Shown here: piece after piece, positions 1 to 64,000 of the stretch | Position numbering within the stretch: position 1 is the first letter of the stretch | Layout: each line of letters opens with the position of its first letter | From: Gemmatimonadaceae bacterium | Lineage (GTDB): Bacteria; Gemmatimonadota; Gemmatimonadetes; Gemmatimonadales; Gemmatimonadaceae | NCBI GenBank assembly: GCA_039924785.1 | Contig: JBDTAE010000164.1 | Location: 4,101-68,100 of the forward strand | DNA length: 64,000 nucleotides | Direction: 5' to 3' | The notes under the pieces: model-generated | The model's database searches: none | The model's input: the letters and a program-made list of their open reading frames with translations, nothing else | Told to the model about the DNA's origin: nothing | Translations under genes and position numbers: made by a program

Positions 1-127
1 ACAAGTCTGAACGTTGGGGATTGTACAGGACTGTCGGCGAGAACGTTTTGAACGACGATTCCAGTCTCGCGAGCCTCACCGTCCACCGCGTGCTTCCGGC
101 GATCGATCGCGTGTGGGGCCAGGCAGG

Positions 128-416
128 CTGGCGGTCAGATTAGCCGCGAATTTCGTACGCTGGCGGTGCGTTTAGCCGCGAATGTCGCCGACACCGGGGG
201 CGGAGAACCGCGGAAAGAACACAAAACCTCTGATGAACGTCCGCCGTCTCAGTCAGAAATGATGAAATAACGAACTTCGGCGCGCCGAGAGGGCACTTTC
301 TTAGTTCTTACAGCACTCCGTGGTGTTCCACGGAACCCGCGGAATGCCGCGGAATAAAACCAGAAAGAGAATCCGTGCTTTTCGCAGTTTCATTTCCGCG
401 GAGTTTCCGCGGCTAA
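128..416. repeat. Intergenic repeat island of the CCGCGGAA / TTAGCCGCGAAT family
   Basis: Two ~32-bp tandem units (128-159 and 160-191, about 24/32 identical), each with CTGGCGGT and TTAGCCGCGAAT. CCGCGGAA at 208, 337, 347, plus variant CCACGGAA at 328. Inverted TTCCGCGG at 394 and 405. CCGCGGCTAA at 407-416 is the reverse complement of TTAGCCGCGG. No ORF of 60 aa or more lies in 1-428. Confidence 0.8.
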
Positions 417-428
417 TCTCACGACAGC

Positions 429-1598
429 CTACGCGCGATTCACCAACCGGTGAATGAGCGAATCGATCATCGCCGCATCGGGAACGCTCCCTTGCGCGAT
501 TCGCGGCGAACCGCCGCCGCGGCCGCCGACCGCCGCCAAACGTTCCTTCAACACCTTTCCCGCGTCGACCCCTGAGTCCTCCGAGGCAGCAAAGAGTACC
601 GACGGCGGCGTCGTCAACGCACCCACCACGACTGTCTTTGGCAGGGCAAGCGACGCCTGTGCGAGATCTCTAATTTCGCCGATCGAACCAGCGTCGCGGA
701 CCACGATCGTGCGAAACCCGCTCGCGTCGGGCGTCGCTGCATCGTACCGTGCCCGCGCGCGAAAGCCTGCCAAGTCGCGCTCCAACTTTCGCTTCGCGTT
801 CTCCGCCTCCTTCGCGCGCTCCTGACTGGCGGCCACCAGCGGCGCTGCGTCCTCGATTGACGCCGACAGCGAGGTGGCAACGTGCGTCAACGCCTCGAAA
901 TCGTTTCGCGCCCGTCGGAGCGCGCGCGTTCCGCACACGAACTCCACGCGAGTCGCCTTTCGAATTTTCTCAACCGACCGAATCATCACTGGACCAAGCT
1001 CCGCGGTCGTCCGAACGTGCGTTCCGCCGCACGCGCTCCGGTCCACGCCCTCGATGTTCACGACCCGCAGCGTGCCGTCGCGACCGGATGCCTTTCGCAG
1101 GCCGATCGCGGTCGCGGCGTCCTCGACCGTGATCGTTACCGGCCGCGCTTCGCCGACAATCGCGTTCGCGCGTTCCTCGGCGGCAACGAGCTTGGCGCGC
1201 GACAGAGAATCCGTCTCGACATCGACCGTCGAATACTCGTCGCCGAAATGCACGCTGACCGTCTTGAAGCCGAACAAATCCTCGAACACCGCGGACAGCA
1301 AATGTTGCCCGGTGTGCTGCTGCATGTTGTCGTAGCGACGCGTCCAGTCCACCACGCCGTTCACGGTGCCGGCCGCGCCTAGCTTCGCCGCGAGCACGTG
1401 GCCGATTCGAGAATCCTCATCGATGACGTCCACGACCTGCACGCCGCCGAGGGTGCCGAGGTCGTGCGGTTGTCCCCCGGAGGTGGGGTAGAACGCCGTC
1501 TCGTCGACGTACACCGTCAACCCGTCAGCGCTCACGCCCACGACTGACGCGGTAAACTCGGCGCGATAAGCGTCCGTGTAGTAGATCCGGTTGGTCAT
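429..1598 (-). CDS. alaX: AlaX-L type alanyl-tRNA editing protein (Ser/Gly-tRNA-Ala deacylase)
   Basis: 389 aa. Zinc motifs HTGQHLL (HxxxH) and CGGTHV (CxxxH) of the Thr/Ala-tRNA synthetase second additional domain. C-terminal DHHA1-like region ending GGRGGGSPRIAQG. ATG at 1598. Confidence 0.85.
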   Translation of the reverse strand: MTNRIYYTDAYRAEFTASVVGVSADGLTVYVDETAFYPTSGGQPHDLGTLGGVQVVDVIDEDSRIGHVLAAKLGAAGTVNGVVDWTRRYDNMQQHTGQHLLSAVFEDLFGFKTVSVHFGDEYSTVDVETDSLSRAKLVAAEERANAIVGEARPVTITVEDAATAIGLRKASGRDGTLRVVNIEGVDRSACGGTHVRTTAELGPVMIRSVEKIRKATRVEFVCGTRALRRARNDFEALTHVATSLSASIEDAAPLVAASQERAKEAENAKRKLERDLAGFRARARYDAATPDASGFRTIVVRDAGSIGEIRDLAQASLALPKTVVVGALTTPPSVLFAASEDSGVDAGKVLKERLAAVGGRGGGSPRIAQGSVPDAAMIDSLIHRLVNRA

Positions 1599-16706: not shown

Positions 16707-16724
16707 CGCACTCCGTCGCGTTCG

Positions 16725-17078
16725 TCATGACGTACCGGCAGTTCGCCGAGCGGTTCTGTCGCGCAAGAGCATTCCGAAACCAGAAAGGAAAAAGGCGGCC
16801 ATCGCGACGCAGATCGGAACAAGCAGCTTCGTCAGAAGCGCGTGCGGAAGGAAGAAAATGAGTGAGCCCGGCAAAAACGTAAGTAGCGTAACGGCGAGCC
16901 AGGGCTCAAAGCGCGGCGGCGAGTCGTCGGTGCCGAGGAACGGCGCCTCCGAGGACTCGGGCGAGGCGGGCCGAGTTGCGACGCGCGGCGCGGCAATCGG
17001 CATTGGCGTCGTTGTTGGGACTGAGGCGCGAACGACAAAGTCCTTTTTATCAGCCGGTTTCTTGGTCGAAATTGACAT
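16725..17078 (-). CDS. Small membrane protein, hypothetical
   Basis: ATG at 17078 preceded by GGAGGGG. 117 aa with two C-terminal TM helices. Ends 18 nt before the antiporter start, so co-transcription is likely. Confidence 0.5.
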   Translation of the reverse strand: MSISTKKPADKKDFVVRASVPTTTPMPIAAPRVATRPASPESSEAPFLGTDDSPPRFEPWLAVTLLTFLPGSLIFFLPHALLTKLLVPICVAMAAFFLSGFGMLLRDRTARRTAGTS

Positions 17079-17196
17079 TAAGTATTCCCCTCCGCGTGAG
17101 GTCACGCAGAAATAGTTTAAAATTGTGATAGTCGGATTTCGCGGTCGGCGATCGCTCGGCGAGTGCAAGAGCGGCCGACGGCGCGGGTAGAGCGCG

Positions 17197-17586
17197 CTAC
17201 AGACCGACTATGGACGGAGGGGCGGTGGCATCGTACGTGAACGCGCGCGCGTCGCGGGGGCGAAGACCTGTGGTCTCGACGTCGAGTCGTGATGTCGACG
17301 ATGTGGCGTCGAGGCGCGCAAGTCGCGCCGTAATCCACGCGTGCGGGAAATGCGCGGTGCGCGGTGCGCGGGCGTTGGGACCGGCGTTCGTCGCCAGATT
17401 CCAGAACGCGGGAATCGCGGCGGTGGAGAGCGAATGGCTCTGGACGACCGGCGCATTGCTCGCGCGCGCGGCAGAACGATCGGGCGCGATCGTGCCGAGA
17501 ACGAATGCGAGAACCGTGAAGAACGCCCGTACCGGGCTGCGCCGAAGATCCATACGAGAAAGATAACGATGCTGACGCACGAGCAT
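17197..17586 (-). CDS. Hypothetical secreted protein
   Basis: High third-position GC by eye. Signal-like MDLRRSPVRAFFTVLAFVLGTIAP. The ATG at 17586 overlaps the stop of the upstream DinB-like gene (TGATG). An alternative start is at 17553. Confidence 0.45.
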   Translation of the reverse strand: MLVRQHRYLSRMDLRRSPVRAFFTVLAFVLGTIAPDRSAARASNAPVVQSHSLSTAAIPAFWNLATNAGPNARAPRTAHFPHAWITARLARLDATSSTSRLDVETTGLRPRDARAFTYDATAPPSIVGL

Positions 17587-21312: not shown

Positions 21313-22290
21313 ATGGGGGCGGACATGGCGGCAGTCCTCGCGCCGCGCTTTCTTTTCCCCATGCTGCCGATTCTCGCCGACACACTGGTTCTCTTCATCG
21401 CCGCCAGCCTGACGAAGCCCATGCAGCCCCTCCTCGACGTCTTCTCGGCGCGAACCGGTGTCGTCGTCGAACGAGAAAGCGGCGCGTCGCTCGAGCATGT
21501 TCGCAAGATCACCGAGCTGCACCGCGTTCCCGACGTCCTGCTGCTCGCGGACGCTGATGTCTTTCCGAGATACCTCGTTCCAAAATACGTGTCATGGTAT
21601 GCGACCTTCGCCCGCAATCGGATGGTCATCGCGTACACCGCGCGATCGAGGCGCGCGAGCGAAATCAACGCGGCAAACTGGATCAGCATCCTGCAACAAA
21701 AGGACGTCGAGGTCGGTCGCACGGATCCGAATCTCGCGCCCGTCGGCTATCGCACGTTGCTCATGCTGCAACTCGCCGAACGGTTCTATGCGAAGCCGGG
21801 CTTGGCCGCGTCGCTTCTGAAGAACGCGCCCGATCGCAACATTCGTCCGAATGCCGCCGAGTTGGCCGCGCTGCTCGCGGCGGGCGAGCTGGATTACATC
21901 TATGACTATCAATCGGTGGCCGAATCGAACGGGTTCAAGTTCATCGCGCTGCCGCCGGCAATCGACCTCGGCGACCCAAAAAGCGGGAGGTCGTATGCGA
22001 CGGTCTCGACGCGCATTCACGGAAGCACGCGGGGAAGCGAGGAAACGATTCGAGGCCAGCCGATTCTGTACGGCTTGAGCGTGCCCACTGGCGCACCACA
22101 CCCCTCCGCCGCCAAGCAGTTTCTGTCGTACCTCCTGGAGCCAGCGACAATTACCGCGTTGCGCGCTGCCCACGTCGACATGCTCGATCGGCCGATTATT
22201 ACGGGAACCGGCGCGCCGTCGGAAATGCGTCGGCTGCCCGTTGGCGGAAAGGCACCGCGGCCACCGCGACAACGAGGATCGACCCATTAG
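21313..22290 (+). CDS. modA: Molybdate/tungstate ABC transporter substrate-binding protein (ModA/WtpA-like)
   Basis: LVLFIAASLTKPMQPL..., TDPNLAPVGYRT, DYIYDYQSVA blocks of oxyanion-binding periplasmic proteins. Alternative start at 21325. Confidence 0.75.
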   Translation: MGADMAAVLAPRFLFPMLPILADTLVLFIAASLTKPMQPLLDVFSARTGVVVERESGASLEHVRKITELHRVPDVLLLADADVFPRYLVPKYVSWYATFARNRMVIAYTARSRRASEINAANWISILQQKDVEVGRTDPNLAPVGYRTLLMLQLAERFYAKPGLAASLLKNAPDRNIRPNAAELAALLAAGELDYIYDYQSVAESNGFKFIALPPAIDLGDPKSGRSYATVSTRIHGSTRGSEETIRGQPILYGLSVPTGAPHPSAAKQFLSYLLEPATITALRAAHVDMLDRPIITGTGAPSEMRRLPVGGKAPRPPRQRGSTH

Positions 22291-23140: not shown

Positions 23141-24283
23141 GTGATCTCCCTGCAAGGCGTGAGCGCGAAGGCTGGCGACTTTCGCCTCGTCGATATCACG
23201 ATCGACGTACCGCAAGGCGAATACGGCGTCGTGATTGGACCGGCCGGGTCTGGCAAGACCACGTTGCTCGAAACGATTGCCGGAGTGATTCGAACGACCG
23301 CCGGGCGAATCATCGTCGCGGGCGCTGACGTCACGGCGGCCGCGCCCGAGCATCGTCGCCTCGGCATCGTGTATCAGCACGCGTATCTGTTTCCGCATCT
23401 CACTGTGCGAGAGAATATCGAATACGGTGCGTCGACGGCCAAGTCTGCGGCGGACATCACCGCCCAATTCGAGCTCGGCCCACTGGCGAATCGCTCGATA
23501 CACTCGCTGAGCGGCGGCGAACGACAACTCGTCGCGATCGCCCGAGCGCTGGCTCGTCAGCCGGACGTTCTTCTGTTGGACGAACCGTTCAGCGCGCTCG
23601 ATCCGCGTACGCGCGACCGCGCGCGTCGAATGCTGCGGAGCATTCATAACCAGCGTCGATTCACCGTTCTTCAAGTCACGCACGACTTTGTGGAAGCAGG
23701 CACGCTTGGAAACGTCGCGATCGTGATGGACGCCGGGCGCGTGCTGCAGCAAGGAGATCCGTCCAACGTATTTACAAAACCTGCATCGGCGTATATCGCG
23801 GATTTTGTTGGCGCCGAGAATGTGTTCGCCGGTACGGTCCGCGCGAGCGCGAGCGAGCACGATACCACGGAACACGATATCGCCGAACACGACACCAGCG
23901 AACGCAACCCCAACGGACGCGACTCCACCGAACGCGCGGGCGGAGCTGACGGTCAGAATCGAGCCGCAGAATTTTCAACGGGCGCGTTGCGATTTTACGT
24001 AGTTGGTGAAGTCACCTTTGGCGCAGCACATGCCGTGATACGCGCGGAAGAAGTCGCCCTTTCCGCGACGCGGAGTACGCGGGCCGAATCGTCGGTGCAG
24101 AATCAGTTTGCCGGAAAAATCGTCGAGATCCTGAATTCTGGCCCGCTCGCGCGAGTGGCGGTGAACGCGAGCGGAACGATCATCGTCGCGATGGTTACCG
24201 CTCGCTCGGTGCGCGACTTGGAGCTGAGAGCCGGATCCGACGTCGTCGTCGGGTTCAAAGCCACCGCGGTTCACATTTGTTGA
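23141..24283 (+). CDS. modC: Molybdate/tungstate ABC transporter ATPase with C-terminal TOBE/Mop domain
   Basis: GTG start. Walker A GPAGSGKTT, LSGGERQ, LLLDEPF. TOBE-like C-terminus (NQFAGKIVEI...VVVGFKATAVHI). An unusual repeat linker is listed separately. Confidence 0.85.
   Translation: MISLQGVSAKAGDFRLVDITIDVPQGEYGVVIGPAGSGKTTLLETIAGVIRTTAGRIIVAGADVTAAAPEHRRLGIVYQHAYLFPHLTVRENIEYGASTAKSAADITAQFELGPLANRSIHSLSGGERQLVAIARALARQPDVLLLDEPFSALDPRTRDRARRMLRSIHNQRRFTVLQVTHDFVEAGTLGNVAIVMDAGRVLQQGDPSNVFTKPASAYIADFVGAENVFAGTVRASASEHDTTEHDIAEHDTSERNPNGRDSTERAGGADGQNRAAEFSTGALRFYVVGEVTFGAAHAVIRAEEVALSATRSTRAESSVQNQFAGKIVEILNSGPLARVAVNASGTIIVAMVTARSVRDLELRAGSDVVVGFKATAVHIC
23855..23944 (+). repeat. 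Degenerate in-frame 15-bp tandem repeat (about 6 units) inside the modC linker
   Basis: Units GAGCACGATACCACG / GAACACGATATCGCC / GAACACGACACCAGC / GAACGCAACCCCAAC / GGACGCGACTCCACC / GAACGCGCGGGCGGA encode EHDTT-EHDIA-EHDTS-ERNPN-GRDST-ERAGG. Confidence 0.8.
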
Positions 24284-24302
24284 ACGGGCGCACTGCGGAG
24301 CC

Positions 24303-24815
24303 TCATTTCTTCGTCGTGGCTGGCGGCGGCGCGTCGCAGTACGCAGTTCCGCTGCAGGTCGTTTGCACGAACGTTTCCGCGATGATGCGCCACGAACCAT
24401 CCGACTCACGCTTCCACTTGGCGAAATAGACGCCGCCAATTTTCGTCGTTCCGGCCGCGCCGCCCCATTGACCCGTCCACTGTCCGCTCTCCGCGGCCTG
24501 GCCCCAGCCCGCGTTCACGACGACTGACGACGGAGTTCGCACGTAGACGGCGTCGTTCCGAGCCGAAAAGATGTTCGCGACGTGCTGACGTTCCGCGTCG
24601 CGGCCCACGGTGCGCACGTTGCTCGACGAAACACCGACATAGTCGACCGACCAGATCGCGGCAGCCGCATCGGCATCGTGCGCGGCGATTGCCCGATTGG
24701 ATGCGGCGCGCGCCGCGCGGATGGCGGCTCGATCTGTCGGACGCGCCTGTCCGCTCAGAGGCAAACCCGCTATCAACAGGGCCGAAGCGCAAAGGAACCT
24801 GCGAAGCTTCGTCAT
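24303..24815 (-). CDS. SnoaL-like / DUF4440 (NTF2-fold) secreted protein
   Basis: Signal peptide MTKLRRFLCASALLIAGLPLSG. IRAARAASNRAIAAHDADAAAAIWSVDY... and ...YFAKWKRESDGSWRII match the DUF4440 pattern. Start could be 24821. Confidence 0.6.
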   Translation of the reverse strand: MTKLRRFLCASALLIAGLPLSGQARPTDRAAIRAARAASNRAIAAHDADAAAAIWSVDYVGVSSSNVRTVGRDAERQHVANIFSARNDAVYVRTPSSVVVNAGWGQAAESGQWTGQWGGAAGTTKIGGVYFAKWKRESDGSWRIIAETFVQTTCSGTAYCDAPPPATTKK

Positions 24816-24899
24816 TGGCATTGTTGCTGTCTCCAATAAAGTCCAAGGAACCCAAACTGCCGATCTTCACGGGCGCGTGCAACGGCGCTACGTTGGGCC

Positions 24900-26171: not shown

Positions 26172-26191
26172 GCGCGCCGTCGGCCGCTGTT

Positions 26192-27590
26192 ATGAAACGC
26201 TCATTGGCGTCGCTCGCCGTTCTCCTCGGCGCGGGGTTTCCGCGCGCGCGCAGCAGCAGTCGACCGAAACATTTCACCAGCTCGGCCACGCCATTCTCCG
26301 CGAACTGATCGAGACGAACACCACAGCGTCGAGCGGAAATACGTCGGTCGCAGCGGAGCAACTCGGCGAACGGTTCAAAGACGCCGGGTTTCCAGCCGCC
26401 GACATCCAAGTCATTGGGCCAACAACGAAGAATCGCAACATCGTCGTTCGCTATCGCGGTACCGGCAAAGCGAAGCCGATTCTTCTGCTCGCGCATCTCG
26501 ACGTCGTTGAGGCGAAGCGTGAGGACTGGACGTACGATCCGTTCAAACTGATGGAGAAGGACGGCTACTTTACGGGCGCGGTACGCAGGATGTCAAAGGC
26601 GCCGCGACGACGCTGATTACCACGCTGTTGCGTCTCAAGACCGAGGGCTGGGTTCCCGACCGCGACCTCATCCTCGCCCTGACGGCCGGCGAAGAAGGCG
26701 GAATGCCGTATGTCGGCGCCGAGTGGCTGGTCAAGAATAAGAGAAGTCTCATCGACGCCGAGTACGCGATCAACGTCGATGCCGGCGGTGGAGAGATCGA
26801 TCACGGCAAGCACACGTTGTTCGACGTGCAAGCCGCGGAAAAGGTCTATCACTCCGTGGCGCTCGTGGTGAAGAATTCAGGAGGACACAGTTCGCTGCCG
26901 CGGAAGGACAACGCGATCTACTCGCTCGCGGCGGCCCTCGACCGCATCGCGAAGTTCGAGTTTCCGGCAAAGCCAAACGACGTCGTGAAAGCGTACTTCG
27001 CGAAGGCGGCCGTAGCGGCGAGTCCGACCGTTGCGGCCGATATGCGCACCGTCGCAACGTCGTCGCTTTCCGCGAGCGCCGCTGCGATTGCCCGGCTGAG
27101 CGCCTCGCCGCTGTACAACGCCAACCTTCGCACGACGTGCGTCGCGACGCAACTCGAAGGCGGGCACGCACCGAACGCGCTTCCGCAAACAGCGCGAGCG
27201 GTCGTGAACTGTCGCATGTTGCCCGGCGAAGATCCCGCCGCCGTTGAGAAGACGCTTGTGCGAGTCATCAACGACACATCCGTTCACCTCTCGCCAATCG
27301 ACACCGCGATTCAAAGTCCGCCGTCGCCACTTCGTCCGGATCTGTTCACCGCAATCGGCGCGTCGGTGAAAGCCATCTTTGGTCCACTACCGATCGTGCC
27401 GACGATGGAAACGGGCGCGACCGACGGGCTCTACCTTCGCAACGCGGGAATTCCGGTGTACGGCTTGAGCGGCCTGTTCATCCCGATCGACGACAATCGA
27501 ATGCACGGAAAGGATGAGAGAATCATCGTCGTCGAATTCGACAAGGCACTCGACTTCACGTACGACCTCTTGAAGCGCATCACACGCTGA
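26192..27590 (+). pseudogene. M20-family carboxypeptidase paralog interrupted by two -1 frameshifts (or sequencing errors)
   Basis: Three consecutive frames carry one protein. Frame a: MKRSLASLAVLLGAG. Frame b: VSARAQQQSTETF...HLDVVEAKREDWTYDPFKLMEKDGYFTG. Frame c: (R)GTQDVKGAATTLITTLLRLKTEGW...GEEGG...GGHSS... to 27590. The shifts sit at the G4 run 26233-26236 and the G3 run 26574-26576; one extra G at each restores the frame. Confidence 0.8.
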
Positions 27591-27595
27591 GGCGA

Positions 27596-28159
27596 CTATC
27601 GATCGAGCACTCGATGGAAATAGTCGACGAGATCGATCACGAGCGGCTCGCTCGCGCCGTCCGGAAGCCATTCGATCTTCTCATCGCACAGTTCGATTCT
27701 TGATTCGCTCGGCGTCGACCGCTCGACGGTCCGAGCGTCGAGATCGACCACCCAATATTCCGGAACGCCTTCGTCGCGGAACACGTTGCGTTTTGCGACG
27801 CGATCTGCGCGCGCGGTGCTCGGCGAAAGAATCTCGACTGCGAGCACAAGCCCTTTCAACTTCTCGAAACGCTCCGGTCGTCGCCCGCCTGCCAGCGGCA
27901 AAACGAACATGTCGGGCTGAACGCCGCGACGAGGAGAGAACACGATATCGCCAGGCGCGATGAAGGCATGCCCGACGCGCTGCCGTTCCAGATATGACGC
28001 GATAAGCCGCGCGAGCTGAAACACTGCCTCCTGATGGCGAAGCGTCGGCGACGGGCTCACGAGCAACTCCCCGTCGATGACTTCGTACCGATTGCCGTCG
28101 TCCGGCAGCTCGTCGCGTTCAACGACAGTCCACCGCCGCTTGAGATCAGGCATGGCCAT
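27596..28159 (-). CDS. Uma2-family (DUF820) endonuclease-fold protein
   Basis: ATG at 28159. RYEVIDGELLVSPSPTLRHQ..., PDMFV, LAVEILSPST..., DR..K...Y...GVPEYWVVD conserved pattern. Confidence 0.8.
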   Translation of the reverse strand: MAMPDLKRRWTVVERDELPDDGNRYEVIDGELLVSPSPTLRHQEAVFQLARLIASYLERQRVGHAFIAPGDIVFSPRRGVQPDMFVLPLAGGRRPERFEKLKGLVLAVEILSPSTARADRVAKRNVFRDEGVPEYWVVDLDARTVERSTPSESRIELCDEKIEWLPDGASEPLVIDLVDYFHRVLDR

Positions 28160-28264
28160 ACGATACACCCTCGGCGGCGAGTGAGCAAGCGAACATGGCG
28201 GCAAGGTACGACTACCGTCGCGTCGACTCACCACCATTCCCCTGCGCCGCGTCTCAAACGAACG

Positions 28265-28308
28265 CAGAAAAAACCTCAGAGAAGCTCCGTTAGAACTCCG
28301 CCGAGGTT
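28265..28308 (-). terminator. Possible terminator of the suf-yciI operon
   Basis: On the minus strand, AACCTC...GAGGTT is followed by TTTTTCTG, about 30 nt after the yciI stop. The stem interior is imperfect. Confidence 0.4.
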
Positions 28309-28338
28309 CAGCGGCTGCGCTTGCCGTTGGCGACAAGA

Positions 28339-28641
28339 CTATTTCGGCAATGCTCTGTCGAGATCTTCCTTGCCCGTGTTCACGTTCCACGGAATGAGCT
28401 CGTACTGGGCGAGTCCGAACGTCACATACGGATCGCCATCGCGCACCCGATCGAGCGCGCCGATGACATCGTCGTCGGGTATGTTGAGCAACAAAATCCC
28501 GCCCGATCGCGGATCCATCGGCCCGGACGCGACGAGCGTTCCGTCCTCCTTCAAGTCGCGGAGGTATGCGCGATGCCGCTCGGTCACTGCGAGAACTTCG
28601 TCCAACGGACGGCGATACCGAATGATGGCGATGGCGTACAT
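28339..28641 (-). CDS. YciI-family protein
   Basis: 100 aa from the ATG at 28641, 1 nt after the sufS stop. MYAIAIIRYRRPLDEV...HRAYL...G.L..SGP...GG pattern of the YciI-like fold. Confidence 0.7.
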   Translation of the reverse strand: MYAIAIIRYRRPLDEVLAVTERHRAYLRDLKEDGTLVASGPMDPRSGGILLLNIPDDDVIGALDRVRDGDPYVTFGLAQYELIPWNVNTGKEDLDRALPK

Positions 28642-42165: not shown

Positions 42166-42204
42166 GACACGGGTCGGCGATAACCTAGCACAAGGAAGAT
42201 CTAC

Positions 42205-42267
42205 GGCGGAATCCGCGGATTCCCGCGGAATGATCCGCGTGGTTCGTGGACTCAGCGGGCTCCGCGG
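42205..42267. repeat. CCGCGGAA-family repeat cluster with a perfect 16-bp palindrome
   Basis: GGAATCCGCGGATTCC at 42208-42223 is a perfect palindrome. CCGCGGAA at 42223, TCCGCGTGG at 42234, TCCGCGG at 42261. It lies immediately upstream of the TldD/PmbA remnant. Confidence 0.85.
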
Positions 42268-42270
42268 CAA

Positions 42271-42680
42271 ATGCTGATCATGAACACCACGTCGACAGGC
42301 TGGACTTCCGCCGGCATTCTCTCGCCACCGACCCTCAGAAAATGTCTTCATCATGACACAGCGTCGTCTGGCGGAACGAAGAGTACCGAAGAACTCATCG
42401 CTGGATGCCGGCGCGGCATTCTCGTCACGCACTTCTTCTACATTCGCTTCCTCGATCAACGAACCATTTTGCCGACCGGCCTCACGCGCGACGGCACGTT
42501 CCTCATCGAGAAGTGCCAGGTCACGCAGGCGGTGAAGAATTCCGATGGAGCGAAAGTCCGCTGTGTCTGATCAGCAAGATCTAAGAACTCGGTCGCGCGG
42601 AGCGGACGGCGACGGGTCAGATGATGCCGGCGATTCGCGCGAAGAACTTCAATCTCTCTTCACCGTCGGACGCCGTTTAG
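42271..42680 (+). pseudogene. 5'-truncated, frameshifted and nonsense-interrupted TldD/PmbA-family metalloprotease remnant
   Basis: Only the C-terminal part is present: GGTKSTEELIAG..RGILVTHFFYIRFLDQRTILPTGLTRDGTFLIEK.QVTQAVKN. It continues in the -1 frame as FRWSESPLCLISKI-TAA(42582)-ELGRAERTATGQMMPAIRAKNFNLSSPSDAV-TAG(42678). The shift lies at the TT run near 42539-42541. Confidence 0.7.
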
Positions 42681-42741
42681 CATCCGCTCATTGTGCCGTC
42701 GCTTCGGCGAGCCGATGAGAACTCTTGACCGCGAGCGACAG

Positions 42742-49386: not shown

Positions 49387-49422
49387 TGCGCCGGCTGGCC
49401 GGCGCGGGCTGCGAAACGCGTT

Positions 49423-49686
49423 TTACTTCTGCGGCTTGCCTGGCGGCGTCGGGCTCTTGAAGACGTCGCGATTGATCTGGATGTACTTCGCCTGCGCGCT
49501 CGGCACGTCTTCTTCAGGGAAGATTGCCGTTACGGGGCACTCGGGCTCACACGCGCCGCAATCGATACATTCGTCCGGGTGAATAAAAAGCTGATCCGGA
49601 CCTTCATATATACAGTCGACCGGGCAAACGTCGACGCAAGCGCGGTCCTTCGTTCCAATGCAAGCTTCGGTTATTACGTAAGGCAT
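49423..49686 (-). CDS. Ferredoxin (FdxA-like, 3Fe-4S/4Fe-4S type)
   Basis: 87 aa. [17 protein letters not shown] and [12 protein letters not shown] cysteine clusters. Confidence 0.9.
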
Positions 49687-49738
49687 GCGTACCTCATGGT
49701 ATCCTGCGATTTGAAGTCTCCCGAGCTAAGATAGTTCC

Positions 49739-50203
49739 ATGCGTCTCATCGTCAACGGACGCCCGCACGACGTCGTCGCCCCGGATCATGAGACGCTGCT
49801 TCTCACCCTGCGCGAGCGCCTCGGATTGACGGGCACGAAGCTGGTTTGCGGCCGCGGCGAATGCGGCGCCTGTACCGTGCTCCTCGACGGTGACTCCGCG
49901 TACGCATGCCTGACGCTGACGGCCGCCTGCGCCGAGCAGAAAATCACCACGATCGAAGGCATTTCGATCGAAGGCAAGCTACATCCGATGCAGGCCGCAT
50001 TCTTCGAACACGACGCGCTGCAATGCGGTTTCTGCACGCCGGGTCAGATTCTGGCGGCGATTGCGCTGTTGTCACAAAGCCCGAATCCCACCGAAGACGA
50101 CGTGCTCTACGGCATGTCGGGCAACATCTGTCGGTGCGGTGCCTATCCGAAAATCCTCCGCGCCGTGCTGGCCGCCGCCGAGGGAGTGCGGGACAATGGC
50201 TAG
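49739..50203 (+). CDS. (2Fe-2S)-binding small subunit of a xanthine dehydrogenase-family molybdenum hydroxylase
   Basis: CGRGECGACTV, CLT, QCGFCTPG, CRCGAY cluster motifs. Confidence 0.9.
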   Translation: MRLIVNGRPHDVVAPDHETLLLTLRERLGLTGTKLVCGRGECGACTVLLDGDSAYACLTLTAACAEQKITTIEGISIEGKLHPMQAAFFEHDALQCGFCTPGQILAAIALLSQSPNPTEDDVLYGMSGNICRCGAYPKILRAVLAAAEGVRDNG

Positions 50204-56123: not shown

Positions 56124-56160
56124 AGCAGCGGAGTTTCCGCGGTACCGAATCGTCGCTGCT
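56124..56160. repeat. Stem-loop presenting a CCGCGGAA-family motif in its loop
   Basis: 7-bp stem AGCAGCG / CGCTGCT encloses GAGTTTCCGCGGTACCGAATCGT. The 15-mer GCGGAGTTTCCGCGG (56128-56142) is identical to 398-412. About 80 nt upstream of the DUF1592 gene. Confidence 0.65.
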
Positions 56161-56238
56161 GATAGCTTTCAAGGCTTGGGAAGGGCCGCGTTGCGACAAC
56201 CGCGCGCGGAGGTTCGCTGGATCGGGGGATCGTCGATC

Positions 56239-62663: not shown

Positions 62664-62702
62664 GAGAGCCACGTTGACTTCGGTCGTCGTGGCTCTTGTC
62701 TT
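62664..62702 (+). terminator. Probable terminator after the FmdB-family gene
   Basis: GAGAGCCACG ... CGTGGCTCTT stem with an inner GAC-TTCG-GTC (UUCG loop), followed by the moderately U-rich GTCTTGG. Confidence 0.55.
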
Positions 62703-62707
62703 GGACA

Positions 62708-62883
62708 GCTGGCGGCGAGATCAGCCGCGGAGTCCGCGGAATTGTGAACGGCGAAACTCCGCGGATGCAGGAGATTCGTGCACCCCGACTAATTGTTTAC
62801 CCGGCGGCGAGTGCCGGCAAGTTAGCCGCGGAATCCGCTGAGCCCGCGGAACACCGCGGAACACCGCGGAACACCGCGGAATG
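62708..62883. repeat. CCGCGGAA-family repeat island including a 10-bp-phased tandem array
   Basis: GCTGGCGGCGAGATCAGCCGCGGAGTCCGCGGAA at 62708-62741 is homologous to 127-150. CCGCGGA at 62759. TTAGCCGCGGAA at 62822-62833. CCGCGGAACA x3 plus CCGCGGAATG at 62844-62883, with starts at 62844, 62854, 62864 and 62874. Confidence 0.9.
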
Positions 62884-62975
62884 AGTTGGTCGGCCCGATC
62901 GACGGTAACTCGGCGCGGAACTTGGGCTCTTTTGCCGCCGGAGTTGACTGGCGTTCGCCACAGTCCCGCAAATGC

Positions 62976-63003
62976 CAAAAAATGCGACGCCAACATTGGC
63001 GTC
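62976..63003 (-). terminator. Possible terminator for the minus-strand gene ending at 63138
   Basis: On the minus strand, the GACGCCAATGTTGGCGTC hairpin is followed by GCATTTTTT. It lies about 135 nt downstream of the stop. Confidence 0.45.
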
Positions 63004-63137
63004 CCGCGCAATCAAAGACAACACAGACATGAGCTTGGCACTGGCCTCTCGAGCGCCGAGGAAGCCGATCCGCGCTCGTCGCAGTTTCCTTCCGCCAAAC
63101 TCCGTGGCTAAGGCGCGCGGGCCTGTTACCGGAAGAA

Positions 63138-64000
63138 CTACCGGCCGCCCGTCGTCGGTGAGCCCTCGGCCGCAAGCATCAGCTGCATGTGATCCTGCGC
63201 CTGTTGAAGGCCGCCTTCCCCCGGATCGGTGGCCGTGATGCGACCATCGCCGTTGAGGTCGGCGCCAGAGGTGAGCTGTGCCGTAATTGAAACCAGCTGG
63301 CTGACCAACGCGGCCGCCTCGGCAGCCGTGGTCGCTGCCTGGATGCGTTGCGCGATCGACAAGGCCTGGTCGCAGCGATCGAGTGTGTTCTTCGACACCA
63401 TGACCACGTGCCCAGCGTGGAGAATCACGTTCTGCGAAGCGCCGGGGACCTTTGCCGCGAGCTCGATGTGCGTCTCGACGCCCAGTGTAGCCTTCTTGAC
63501 GCCGTAGCCAAGTCCGGGCCCCATAGGCATGATGGTCGGGTCGATGGCGTTGATGACGTGGCCGGCGTGCAGCTTCATCATCTCGAGGTTTGTCGGAGTA
63601 CGCTGGGCAAGCGCGGCGTGCTGTGCCGCGGTCCGGGCCTCAGCCAATGCGACCGGCAGCAAGCCCATCTTGTTCGGCGTGTCGTTGAAGCTGTTCATGA
63701 CGTGGCCGATGTGCGTCCCGACCATGCCGGCCGGCACCTTGACCGTTGGCGCGGCAGCGACGACGCCGGGCGTGGGGGCACCGGTCAGCTGCGCGATGAT
63801 GACGTCGAACGACCTGCGGAGCGTGGAGTCGGTGCTGATGACGAAAATCTTCTTCTGGTAGTCGGCATCGGTGAGCCCGTTCTTCTGCAAAATGCCCGCG
63901 ACCTCGGTACGAAGCTTTACCTGCAGCTGCTCCTGCGCTTCGGGCTTTTTGTTTCGAGCCTGTGCAAACTGCAGATCGGCCGAGTCGTGCGCCTGCGTGA
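63138..64000 (-). CDS. Hypothetical protein with three H-x-G-H-V motifs and an EF-hand/dockerin-like DxNxDG loop (N-terminus outside the window)
   Basis: The frame stays open from 63138 to the window edge; I hand-translated 63891-63998 and found no stops. Motifs THIGHV, LHAGHV, LHAGHV, then DLNGDGRITATD near the C-terminus. Confidence 0.6.
   Translation of the reverse strand, partial: TQAHDSADLQFAQARNKKPEAQEQLQVKLRTEVAGILQKNGLTDADYQKKIFVISTDSTLRRSFDVIIAQLTGAPTPGVVAAAPTVKVPAGMVGTHIGHVMNSFNDTPNKMGLLPVALAEARTAAQHAALAQRTPTNLEMMKLHAGHVINAIDPTIMPMGPGLGYGVKKATLGVETHIELAAKVPGASQNVILHAGHVVMVSKNTLDRCDQALSIAQRIQAATTAAEAAALVSQLVSITAQLTSGADLNGDGRITATDPGEGGLQQAQDHMQLMLAAEGSPTTGGR

Follow-up and report, generated by a model that had tools for sequence, protein, structure and literature searches.

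Non-coding repeats with inverted ends of phased CCGCGGA(A/T) motifs in a Gemmatimonadaceae lineage

[quoted passage not shown] A modular organisation is found in the pneumococcal BOX element, boxA-(boxB)n-boxC, and in the BrickBuilt MITE of Porphyromonas gingivalis (PMC4596501). Here, we describe a repeat family in a 64,000-nucleotide stretch of DNA from a Gemmatimonadaceae bacterium (assembly GCA_039924785.1, contig JBDTAE010000164.1, positions 4,101 to 68,100 of the forward strand; 62.6% GC), in the following called the window. The family occurs in three intergenic islands and one solo fragment, and the common unit of the islands, which was named R, comprises 55–65 nt. The family was previously undescribed and is known so far only from this Gemmatimonadaceae lineage. 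It is an ordinary kind of bacterial "junk" or mosaic repeat and does not represent a new type of system. With a probability of roughly 55%, we regard the islands as a MITE- or BIME-like non-coding mosaic repeat family, the inverted ends of which are arrays of putative phased protein-binding motifs.

R starts with a head of about 20 nt, caGGCTGgCGG..AGATyAG, which is followed by three to four motifs CCGCGGA(A/T). The tetranucleotide located directly before the first CCGCGG in the heads is TTAG, TCAG, CTAC or TTGG. Most adjacent motifs are spaced by 9–11 bp, which corresponds to one helical turn and therefore places the motif copies on one face of the DNA. In all three islands, a forward unit, R(+), is found at the left edge and a reverse unit, R(-), at the right edge. 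The layout of the element is thus R(+), a variable interior of 0–250 bp, and R(-), with ends written GGCTGNCG..AGATTAGCCGCGG, and thereby resembles a pair of transposon or recombination ends that face each other. The existence of the repeat family and its inverted architecture is evident from these arrangements. A restriction-modification signature was considered as well and rejected, since CCGCGG is not avoided in the window (observed/expected 1.05).

The R copies are 65–80% identical. Their pairwise local alignments scored up to 12 standard deviations above shuffled sequences over 40–60 nt, including positions outside the motif; hence the islands share more than an octamer, as an earlier note on this DNA had proposed. 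An nhmmer profile built from some copies recovered the other copies as its only matches within the window at E < 1e-6, and it also recovered a copy in the metagenomic contig L033 of a relative. The combined 21-position R signature gave two matches in the window with 0.00 expected. Two subfamilies can be distinguished. Subfamily A comprises the units U3, U5 and U6 and the L033 copy, which have ..AAC.GCGA..CGCGGAT in common, while units U4 (island 2) and U8 (island 3) form subfamily B with the common derived string CCGCTGAG(C/T)CC and a z-score of 11.1 in their pairwise alignment. The R end of the main subfamily reads ..aAC.GCGAa..c.CGGAT. Such subfamilies with shared derived variants argue for descent by copying and not for independent convergence on the motif. 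U6 and a copy in the contig L155 of another relative are clearly decaying. The island interiors could not be aligned, neither between islands 1 and 2 nor between island 1 and its orthologous counterpart in L033 (z = 0.1–2.2 versus shuffles; 0.7–2.2 for the interiors of the islands among themselves). Unrelated interiors are also a feature of mosaic or composite repeats.

The clustering of the octamer CCGCGGAA, which had drawn attention to the islands, was examined by an exhaustive count. The window contains 19 exact copies on both strands, compared to 7.6 ± 2.7 (maximum 13) in 100 dinucleotide-preserving shuffles. Thirteen of them are located in the 15.7% of the window called non-coding by a crude codon-bias gene model (binomial p ~4e-7), namely five in island 1, six in island 2, one in island 3 and one at position 56135; islands 1 and 2 alone hold 11 of these 13 copies on ~1.2% of the window. 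The proposed packing into four non-coding patches was thereby substantiated. Coding copies had been judged to occur at about chance level, which is correct, but their number is six (26833, 26898, 37507, 39748, 43860 and 48114) and not three. If one mismatch is allowed, 167 copies are found versus 150 ± 12 in shuffles, i.e. no enrichment across the window, and the signal consequently consists of local clusters and not of a genome-wide bias.

Island 1 (~117–428) consists of ~312 bp of inserted non-coding DNA between two convergent genes. Its left edge, which represents the left terminal inverted repeat (120–190, plus strand), is composed of two tandem R heads at 127–158 and 159–190 with the structure GCTGGCGG-N5-TTAGCCGCGAAT. 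The 32-bp tandem units described in the earlier note are real (127–190; 25 of 32 positions matching, 78%; Tandem Repeats Finder (TRF) period 32, 1.9 copies, 86%). This edge resembles both U3 in island 2 (62708) and the reverse complement of 362–431 with z-scores of 6.8–10.3. The suggested match of the head to position 62708 also holds, with GCTGGCGGTCAGATTAGCCGCGAA agreeing with 62708–62731 at 20 of 24 positions. A lone forward motif, GGCGGAGAACCGCGGAA (199–215, plus strand), is followed by an interior of ~105 nt (216–320) with 49.5% GC and by three phased forward motifs (320–356, plus strand), CCACGGAA at 328 and CCGCGGAA at 337 and 347, which are spaced by 9 and 10 bp. The motif at 328 belongs to a small palindrome, CCGTGG-tgtt-CCACGG (322–337). 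The right terminal inverted repeat is the full R unit U5 (362–428, minus strand; nhmmer E = 1e-12 and 6e-10), which abuts the alaX stop codon (429–431); its alignment with U3 had a z-score of 11.3 and that with the orthologous copy of L033 one of 8.1. For the exact octamers of island 1, the positions reported earlier (208, 337 and 347 on the plus strand, 394 and 405 on the minus strand) were reproduced, whereas the left-hand copies read TTAGCCGCGA instead of TTAGCCGCGG. As had been supposed, the island is internally inverted: the terminal inverted repeats CAGGCTGGCGGTCAGATTAGCCGCGAA and TAGGCTGTCGTGAGATTAGCCGCGGAA agree at ~23 of 27 nt, and the complete island forms a single long hairpin in the folding of both strands (z = -4.5 and -3.9).

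The alaX-type gene to the right of island 1 (429–1598, minus strand) encodes an alanyl-tRNA editing protein with matches to NCBIfam AlaXM and the AlaS editing domain and with an intact C-terminus. To the left, a 428-bp stretch had been taken as non-coding. This applies to ~117–428, but positions 1–116 are coding and belong to the C-terminal part of a family-9 glycosyltransferase (GT9, heptosyltransferase-like) gene, which lies on the plus strand and converges with alaX. The 3′ end of the GT9 gene extends over 1–143 and its C-terminus KSERWGLY...DRVW (frame 3) matches the proteins of the related contigs L030 and L031; the convergent gene of L031 carries the domain PF01075 Glyco_transf_9. Homology to the relatives stops at ...DRVW (base 116), and the tails beyond DRVW differ in every relative. 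In the window, the last eight codons (GQAGWRSD) and the TAG stop codon (141–143) come from an R head. Judged by this comparison, the insertion of island 1 has rewritten the 3′ end of the GT9 gene.

Filled and empty sites were compared in the relatives, the closest of which are only 79–81% identical in AlaX. The alaX site is empty in L030 (AlaX 79%), L032 (79%) and the outgroup L031 (73%), where the convergent ends of the GT9 and alaX genes overlap by 4–42 nt. It is filled in the window, with ~312 nt between the GT9 ...DRVW codon and the alaX stop, and in L033 (AlaX 81%). The L033 island starts with a recognisable R(-) directly after the alaX stop, which contains four motif copies at 10-11-10 bp and is followed by an A-rich interior in which the contig ends.

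The second island (62705–63137, ~433 bp) is situated at the junction of a Zn-ribbon gene and a hypothetical gene. Its left edge is the full R unit U3 (62705–62775, plus strand; nhmmer E = 1e-9 and 3e-11), which begins directly 3′ of the terminator hairpin of the Zn-ribbon gene (62668–62704). U3 is followed by a second forward R of subfamily B, U4 (62800–62885, plus strand; E = 1e-7), the array of which has grown to four perfect 10-bp units CCGCGGAACA (62844–62881; TRF period 10, 5.8 copies). The 32-bp head duplication of island 1 and this 4 x 10 bp array demonstrate that the motif arrays change in length, which is consistent with slippage. The interior of ~175 nt (62886–63059) is without similarity to the other interiors and contains a terminator-like hairpin on the minus strand, GACGCCAATGTTGGCGTC followed by a T-run (63003–62976). 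At the right edge, the degenerate R unit U6 (63060–63128, minus strand; E = 6e-9; z = 8.5 to U5) ends 10 nt from the stop codon (63138–63140) of the minus-strand hypothetical gene. The site is empty in L154 (84%), with nothing but a ~70-nt bidirectional terminator, and in L159 (88%), with a terminator and an unrelated ~90-nt spacer. It is filled in the window, in L001, a 1.2-kb Logan contig of a near-identical strain, and in L155 (87%), which originates from the same sample as L033. The L155 island is diverged and comprises >268 nt, in which a remnant of R shows weak similarity.

The hairpin of the Zn-ribbon (FmdB-family) gene was found to be orthologous in three lineages (window, 62668–62704; L154, 11025–11075; L159, ~950–1000). 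In L154 it forms a textbook bidirectional terminator, with an A-tract before and a T-tract after the stem GCCACGAAG/CTTCGTGGC. Island 2 parts the minus-strand gene of the window from this hairpin, and the hairpin at 63003–62976 represents a new terminator-like structure inside the island.

Island 3 (42190–42285, ~95 bp) is a minimal element between the stop codon of an NHL-repeat gene and the tldD promoter. It consists of an R(+) (42195–42245) and an R(-) (42228–42280) which overlap with their heads pointing outward (nhmmer E = 7e-8 and 3e-7), and it contains one exact CCGCGGAA plus variants. There is no R at the corresponding site of L156 (86%) and L158 (83%), and the extra segment of ~85–115 nt is delimited by the kept tldD promoter and start codon. 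The tldD gene itself is a pseudogene in the window (42330–42700): promoter, start codon and first codons (ATGACACAGCGTCGT...) are kept with L156 and L158, and the sequence then jumps to a frameshifted C-terminal TldD/PmbA fragment. In comparison to L158, ~4.5 kb are gone at this position, a loss that covers the larger part of tldD together with pmbA and one gene for an M28 peptidase. The solo fragment (56124–56168) lies in a divergent intergenic region and carries GCGGAGTTTCCGCGG, 15 nt which are identical to 396–410 in island 1. This sequence is part of a small hairpin, GCAGCG...CGCTGC, and is absent from the corresponding region of L154. All islands contain short open reading frames (ORFs) only, without codon bias.

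About 70 kb of flanking sequence from the relatives contained neither motif clusters nor R units. Because the junctions of the relatives are compact, the islands are lineage-specific additions, and one other lineage has diverged islands at two of the sites. At the level of the compared sequences, the islands are insertions relative to the sister lineages; a single gain in a common ancestor, parallel gains or a loss in sister lineages are all possible. Assemblers typically break at multi-copy repeats, and each of the metagenome contigs L033 and L155 stops within its island.

Further members of the family were sought in public databases. A scan of genome contigs with the head pattern GCTGNCGN{2,3}AGATYAGCCGCGRA, which covered GTDB representatives, the source lineage not being one of them, yielded 28 single matches from unrelated phyla, about the number expected by chance, without motif clusters. 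Two head-like matches in L023 proved to be paralogous coding sequence. In metagenome contigs, the 21-position R signature matched at least 120 loci, almost all of them coding for Ala/Glu-rich sequence (GCCGCGGAG...), and nhmmer identified no family member among the matches listed; for a scan of this kind, the signature is too similar to GC-rich coding DNA. A plasmid database searched in distant mode contained no match, and literature searches on the motif and on Gemmatimonadetes repeats turned up nothing but primers and general papers on MITEs and REPs.

A scan of viral contigs (IMG/VR) for three phased octamers revealed two loci, L160 and L161. In L160 (4890–4945), TTCCGCGGAA is repeated three to five times with a 10-bp period beside the gene of a DnaA_C helix-turn-helix protein. 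In L161 (2520–2715), more than ten copies of CCGCGGAAGT with a 10-bp period are arranged in three clusters directly after the gene of a 736-aa AAA_25 protein, which looks like a primase-helicase by eye, with AAA_25 as the only confirmed domain. Both arrays, with a motif that is nearly the same as that of R, are probably replication-origin iterons. They indicate that motif arrays of this type can be protein-binding; they provide no link of the chromosomal islands to any replicon.

Regarding the systems introduced above, the islands share several properties with MITEs: they are 85–430 bp long, non-coding and intergenic, have terminal inverted repeats of ~25–45 nt and fold as long hairpins. Likewise, several copies occur per genome region, presence and absence differ between related lineages, and the elements can supply new gene ends. 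Of the features that define MITEs, inverted termini in all three islands, small size without coding capacity and empty sites in relatives were observed. In contrast to classical MITEs, the copies of which are alike along their whole length, the islands have unrelated interiors and only their R ends are alike. Furthermore, each of their inverted repeats consists of an array of a phased 8-mer, a target-site duplication could not be recognised in the diverged flanks, and no partner insertion sequence (IS) with matching ends is known. With BIMEs and REPINs, the islands have in common a mosaic structure, in which variable linkers join copies of a short GC-rich unit that alternate in orientation, and the preferred position after gene 3′ ends, including those of convergent genes; island 3, with two inverted units forming one hairpin, resembles a REPIN. 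However, R is a 55–65-nt direct-repeat array, whereas a REP is a single imperfect palindrome of 20–40 nt. Also unlike REPs, the R heads lack a GTAG or CGTC tag, single R units show no significant fold, and no RAYT gene (Y1 HuH transposase), with which REPs are associated at more than ~100 copies per genome, was found among the window proteins scanned.

The closest structural analogues of the islands are BOX, BrickBuilt (PMC4596501) and BIMEs (PMC2817692). As in BOX and BrickBuilt, short tandem units, the number of which varies, stand between a head and a tail, small inverted ends are present, and the elements are strictly intergenic and restricted to a species or lineage, with repeat numbers varying between copies. 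The tandem unit of R comprises 10 bp, compared to 23 nt in BrickBuilt and 45 bp in boxB, and it is located in the inverted ends and not in a central minisatellite. In sequence, R resembles neither of these elements.

Ends or arrays with multiple protein-binding sites occur in Tn7, Mu and IS21, in the arm sites of lambda attP, in the octamer iterons of phage P4 ori/crr and in R1 parC. The islands resemble them by functional analogy only, in that opposed clusters of direct repeats, spaced by about one helical turn, flank an AT-richer centre. They differ in their neighbours, which are alaX, GT9, Zn-ribbon, hypothetical, NHL-repeat and tldD genes and include no transposase, integrase, Rep or Par gene, in the presence of three copies within 64 kb of ordinary chromosome, and in a repeat which is shorter than typical transposase sites of 19–22 bp. 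The sequence GTTAGCC does not fit the core of integron attC sites, GTTRRRY. The KorB operator, TTTAGCCGCTAAA, ParB parS and the Noc-binding site (NBS), i.e. palindromes of the type TTTC-NNNN-GAAA, and a Chi-like GCTGGCGG were considered as well, and no membership is claimed; instead of such palindromes, asymmetric half-motifs prevail in the islands.

How might such elements have arisen? In the MITE- or BIME-like interpretation, the phased motifs would be binding sites of a protein, most likely of a transposase or recombinase whose gene lies in another part of the genome or, alternatively, of a host DNA-binding protein. This protein would pair the two inverted ends, and transposition or recombination would have dispersed the elements in the ancestor of the lineage. 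Most of them would now be decaying relics, while some copies may be kept as providers of gene ends or 3′-untranslated region (3′-UTR) sequence. The earlier note had offered a degenerate composite element or a binding-site cluster as explanations. A composite element fits the presence and absence in relatives; the two options are not mutually exclusive and are not fully separated by our results.

Several observations weigh against this interpretation. By eye, no target-site duplication was recognised at the six junctions when filled and empty sites were compared at the three loci, the flanks of which are too diverged, and the search was hampered at alaX by the outermost inverted-repeat bases, which overlap the stop codon. 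Among the ~45 window proteins scanned, no transposase, RAYT or integrase was found, and all of them look like housekeeping proteins. The sample comprises three islands and one fragment from 64 kb, close relatives are scarce in public data, and the neighbour-joining tree of AlaX is an unresolved star with bootstrap values of 11–23%. As the copies are old and diverged (65–80% identical), nothing points to recent mobility. Moreover, the orthologous R(-) units after alaX are 75% identical between the window and L033 (46 of 61 positions), while the four-fold degenerate sites of alaX are 46% identical, with saturation at 37%, and the interiors of the two islands defy alignment. Decay on a par with the interior would be expected of a purely selfish relic; conservation of R(-) thus suggests purifying selection, gene conversion or re-insertion.

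This conservation is one reason to consider that the islands are not selfish DNA at all, but host-functional arrays in which two opposed clusters of phased CCGCGGA(A/T) motifs are cooperatively bound by a lineage-specific protein. Candidates for the binder are an iteron-, partition- or nucleoid-type protein or a direct-repeat binder of the OmpR/PhoB type, and the selected role could be to organise the chromosome, to insulate convergent transcription or to regulate a transcript that is not annotated. Such arrays would agree with the motif spacing of 9–11 bp in the window and 10-11-10 bp in L033, with conservation of sequence and not of base pairing, and with the retention of the orthologous R(-) at 75% while neutral sites are near saturation. 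In addition, the L033 copy is as similar to the non-orthologous U3 (z = 12.1) as to its ortholog U5 (z = 8.1), as expected if all copies are kept to one consensus, and the 10-bp arrays adjoining replication proteins in the two viral contigs illustrate that such arrays can be protein-binding iterons. However, the islands are absent at all three sites in equally close relatives with compact junctions, the genes next to them have unrelated functions, and two of the three sites are enclosed by gene 3′ ends, a position at which a promoter would not be expected; a promoter scan found no sigma-70-like promoter in islands 1 or 2. Together with the clear decay of copies such as U6 and the one in L155, and with no candidate binding protein identified, this renders host-functional arrays a rather unlikely explanation.

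In a further interpretation, the R units would be more than relics, namely domesticated cis-sites, which would be under purifying selection and used by a lineage-specific DNA-binding protein at gene 3′ boundaries. These sites would possibly insulate convergent transcription or organise the chromosome and would be gained and lost fast between sister lineages, and their binder may be descended from a transposase or from a protein that binds iterons. We consider such a domestication improbable.

It appears quite improbable, too, that R acts at the RNA level as a 3′-UTR element, in which CCGCGG-loop-CCGCGG hairpins would serve as terminators or barriers to 3′-exonucleases like the REPs of E. coli. 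In five of five cases, R is placed after the upstream gene's stop codon and has the orientation of that gene, but this rule is automatic for any element bounded by inverted repeats between convergent genes. The only terminator-like hairpin of the minus-strand gene at island 2 lies beyond R(-), which should consequently be transcribed. Six of seven single R units folded no better than shuffles (z = +1.2 to -2.0), with the U4 array as the exception (z = -3.0), and the alignment of seven copies gave a consensus of five pairs (-5 kcal/mol) without any compensatory change. Hence, neither folding nor covariation lent support to the RNA-level option left open by the earlier note. Two palindrome variants keep their complementarity, CCGTGG/CCACGG in island 1 (322–337) and CCGCGA-atc-TCGCGG in L033, but a dyad-symmetric DNA site predicts the same pattern and explains it equally well. 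No U-tract follows the hairpins, and a terminator scan found none in island 1 and solely the minus-strand hairpin inside island 2. Rfam gave no match at the gathering threshold across the window and none relevant at E ≤ 1 in islands 1 and 2, and a scan of the window for tRNA and tmRNA genes found nothing. The conservation of motif sequence and one-turn spacing points instead to protein recognition on duplex DNA.

Finally, an artefact of GC-rich low-complexity DNA and local slippage, by which unrelated patches would share an octamer, is effectively refuted: although the 10-bp and 32-bp tandems are slippage products and one-mismatch octamers are not enriched across the window, none of the 100 shuffles reached 19 octamers, the 21-position signature matched twice with 0.00 expected, R units are similar up to z = 12 over 40–60 nt also outside the motif, and one architecture recurs in three islands and in a second organism.

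Some further observations were made in the window and on other contigs. A second M20/M28-type peptidase gene (ORF 26628–27590) has apparently lost its N-terminal part or is frameshifted, with coding-like sequence in another frame upstream at 26400–26627 (region 26172–26627). A Uma2-family gene (PF05685, putative restriction endonuclease-like; 27596–28390) was missed by the crude codon-bias model. Several further gaps longer than 400 bp appear to be non-coding (16707–17585, 21523–22240, 23891–24899 and 49387–50060). At the edge of a minus-strand ORF, a 15-bp tandem repeat, CGACACCACCGAACG, is present in ~5 copies with 74% matches (23854–23936). The contig L086 (JGI metagenome contig Ga0066388_100184043), which matched the R signature, contains at 100–330 a long tandem of GCCGCGGAGCCCGCGGACCGC and variants with a 21-nt period, which is unrelated to R and may be coding.

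To our knowledge, almost no mobile or repetitive non-coding DNA has been described for the Gemmatimonadaceae. If the islands are indeed MITE- or BIME-like elements, they would constitute a new repeat family in these bacteria and a clean case of an element that rewrites a C-terminus together with the stop codon and parts a gene from its ancestral bidirectional terminator. Such elements break metagenome assemblies and may be misread as regulatory regions or as genes of small RNAs, and strains could be marked by the lengths of their arrays. Should the phased motifs have a binding protein, its discovery would offer a tractable route to DNA-protein recognition in an uncultured lineage.

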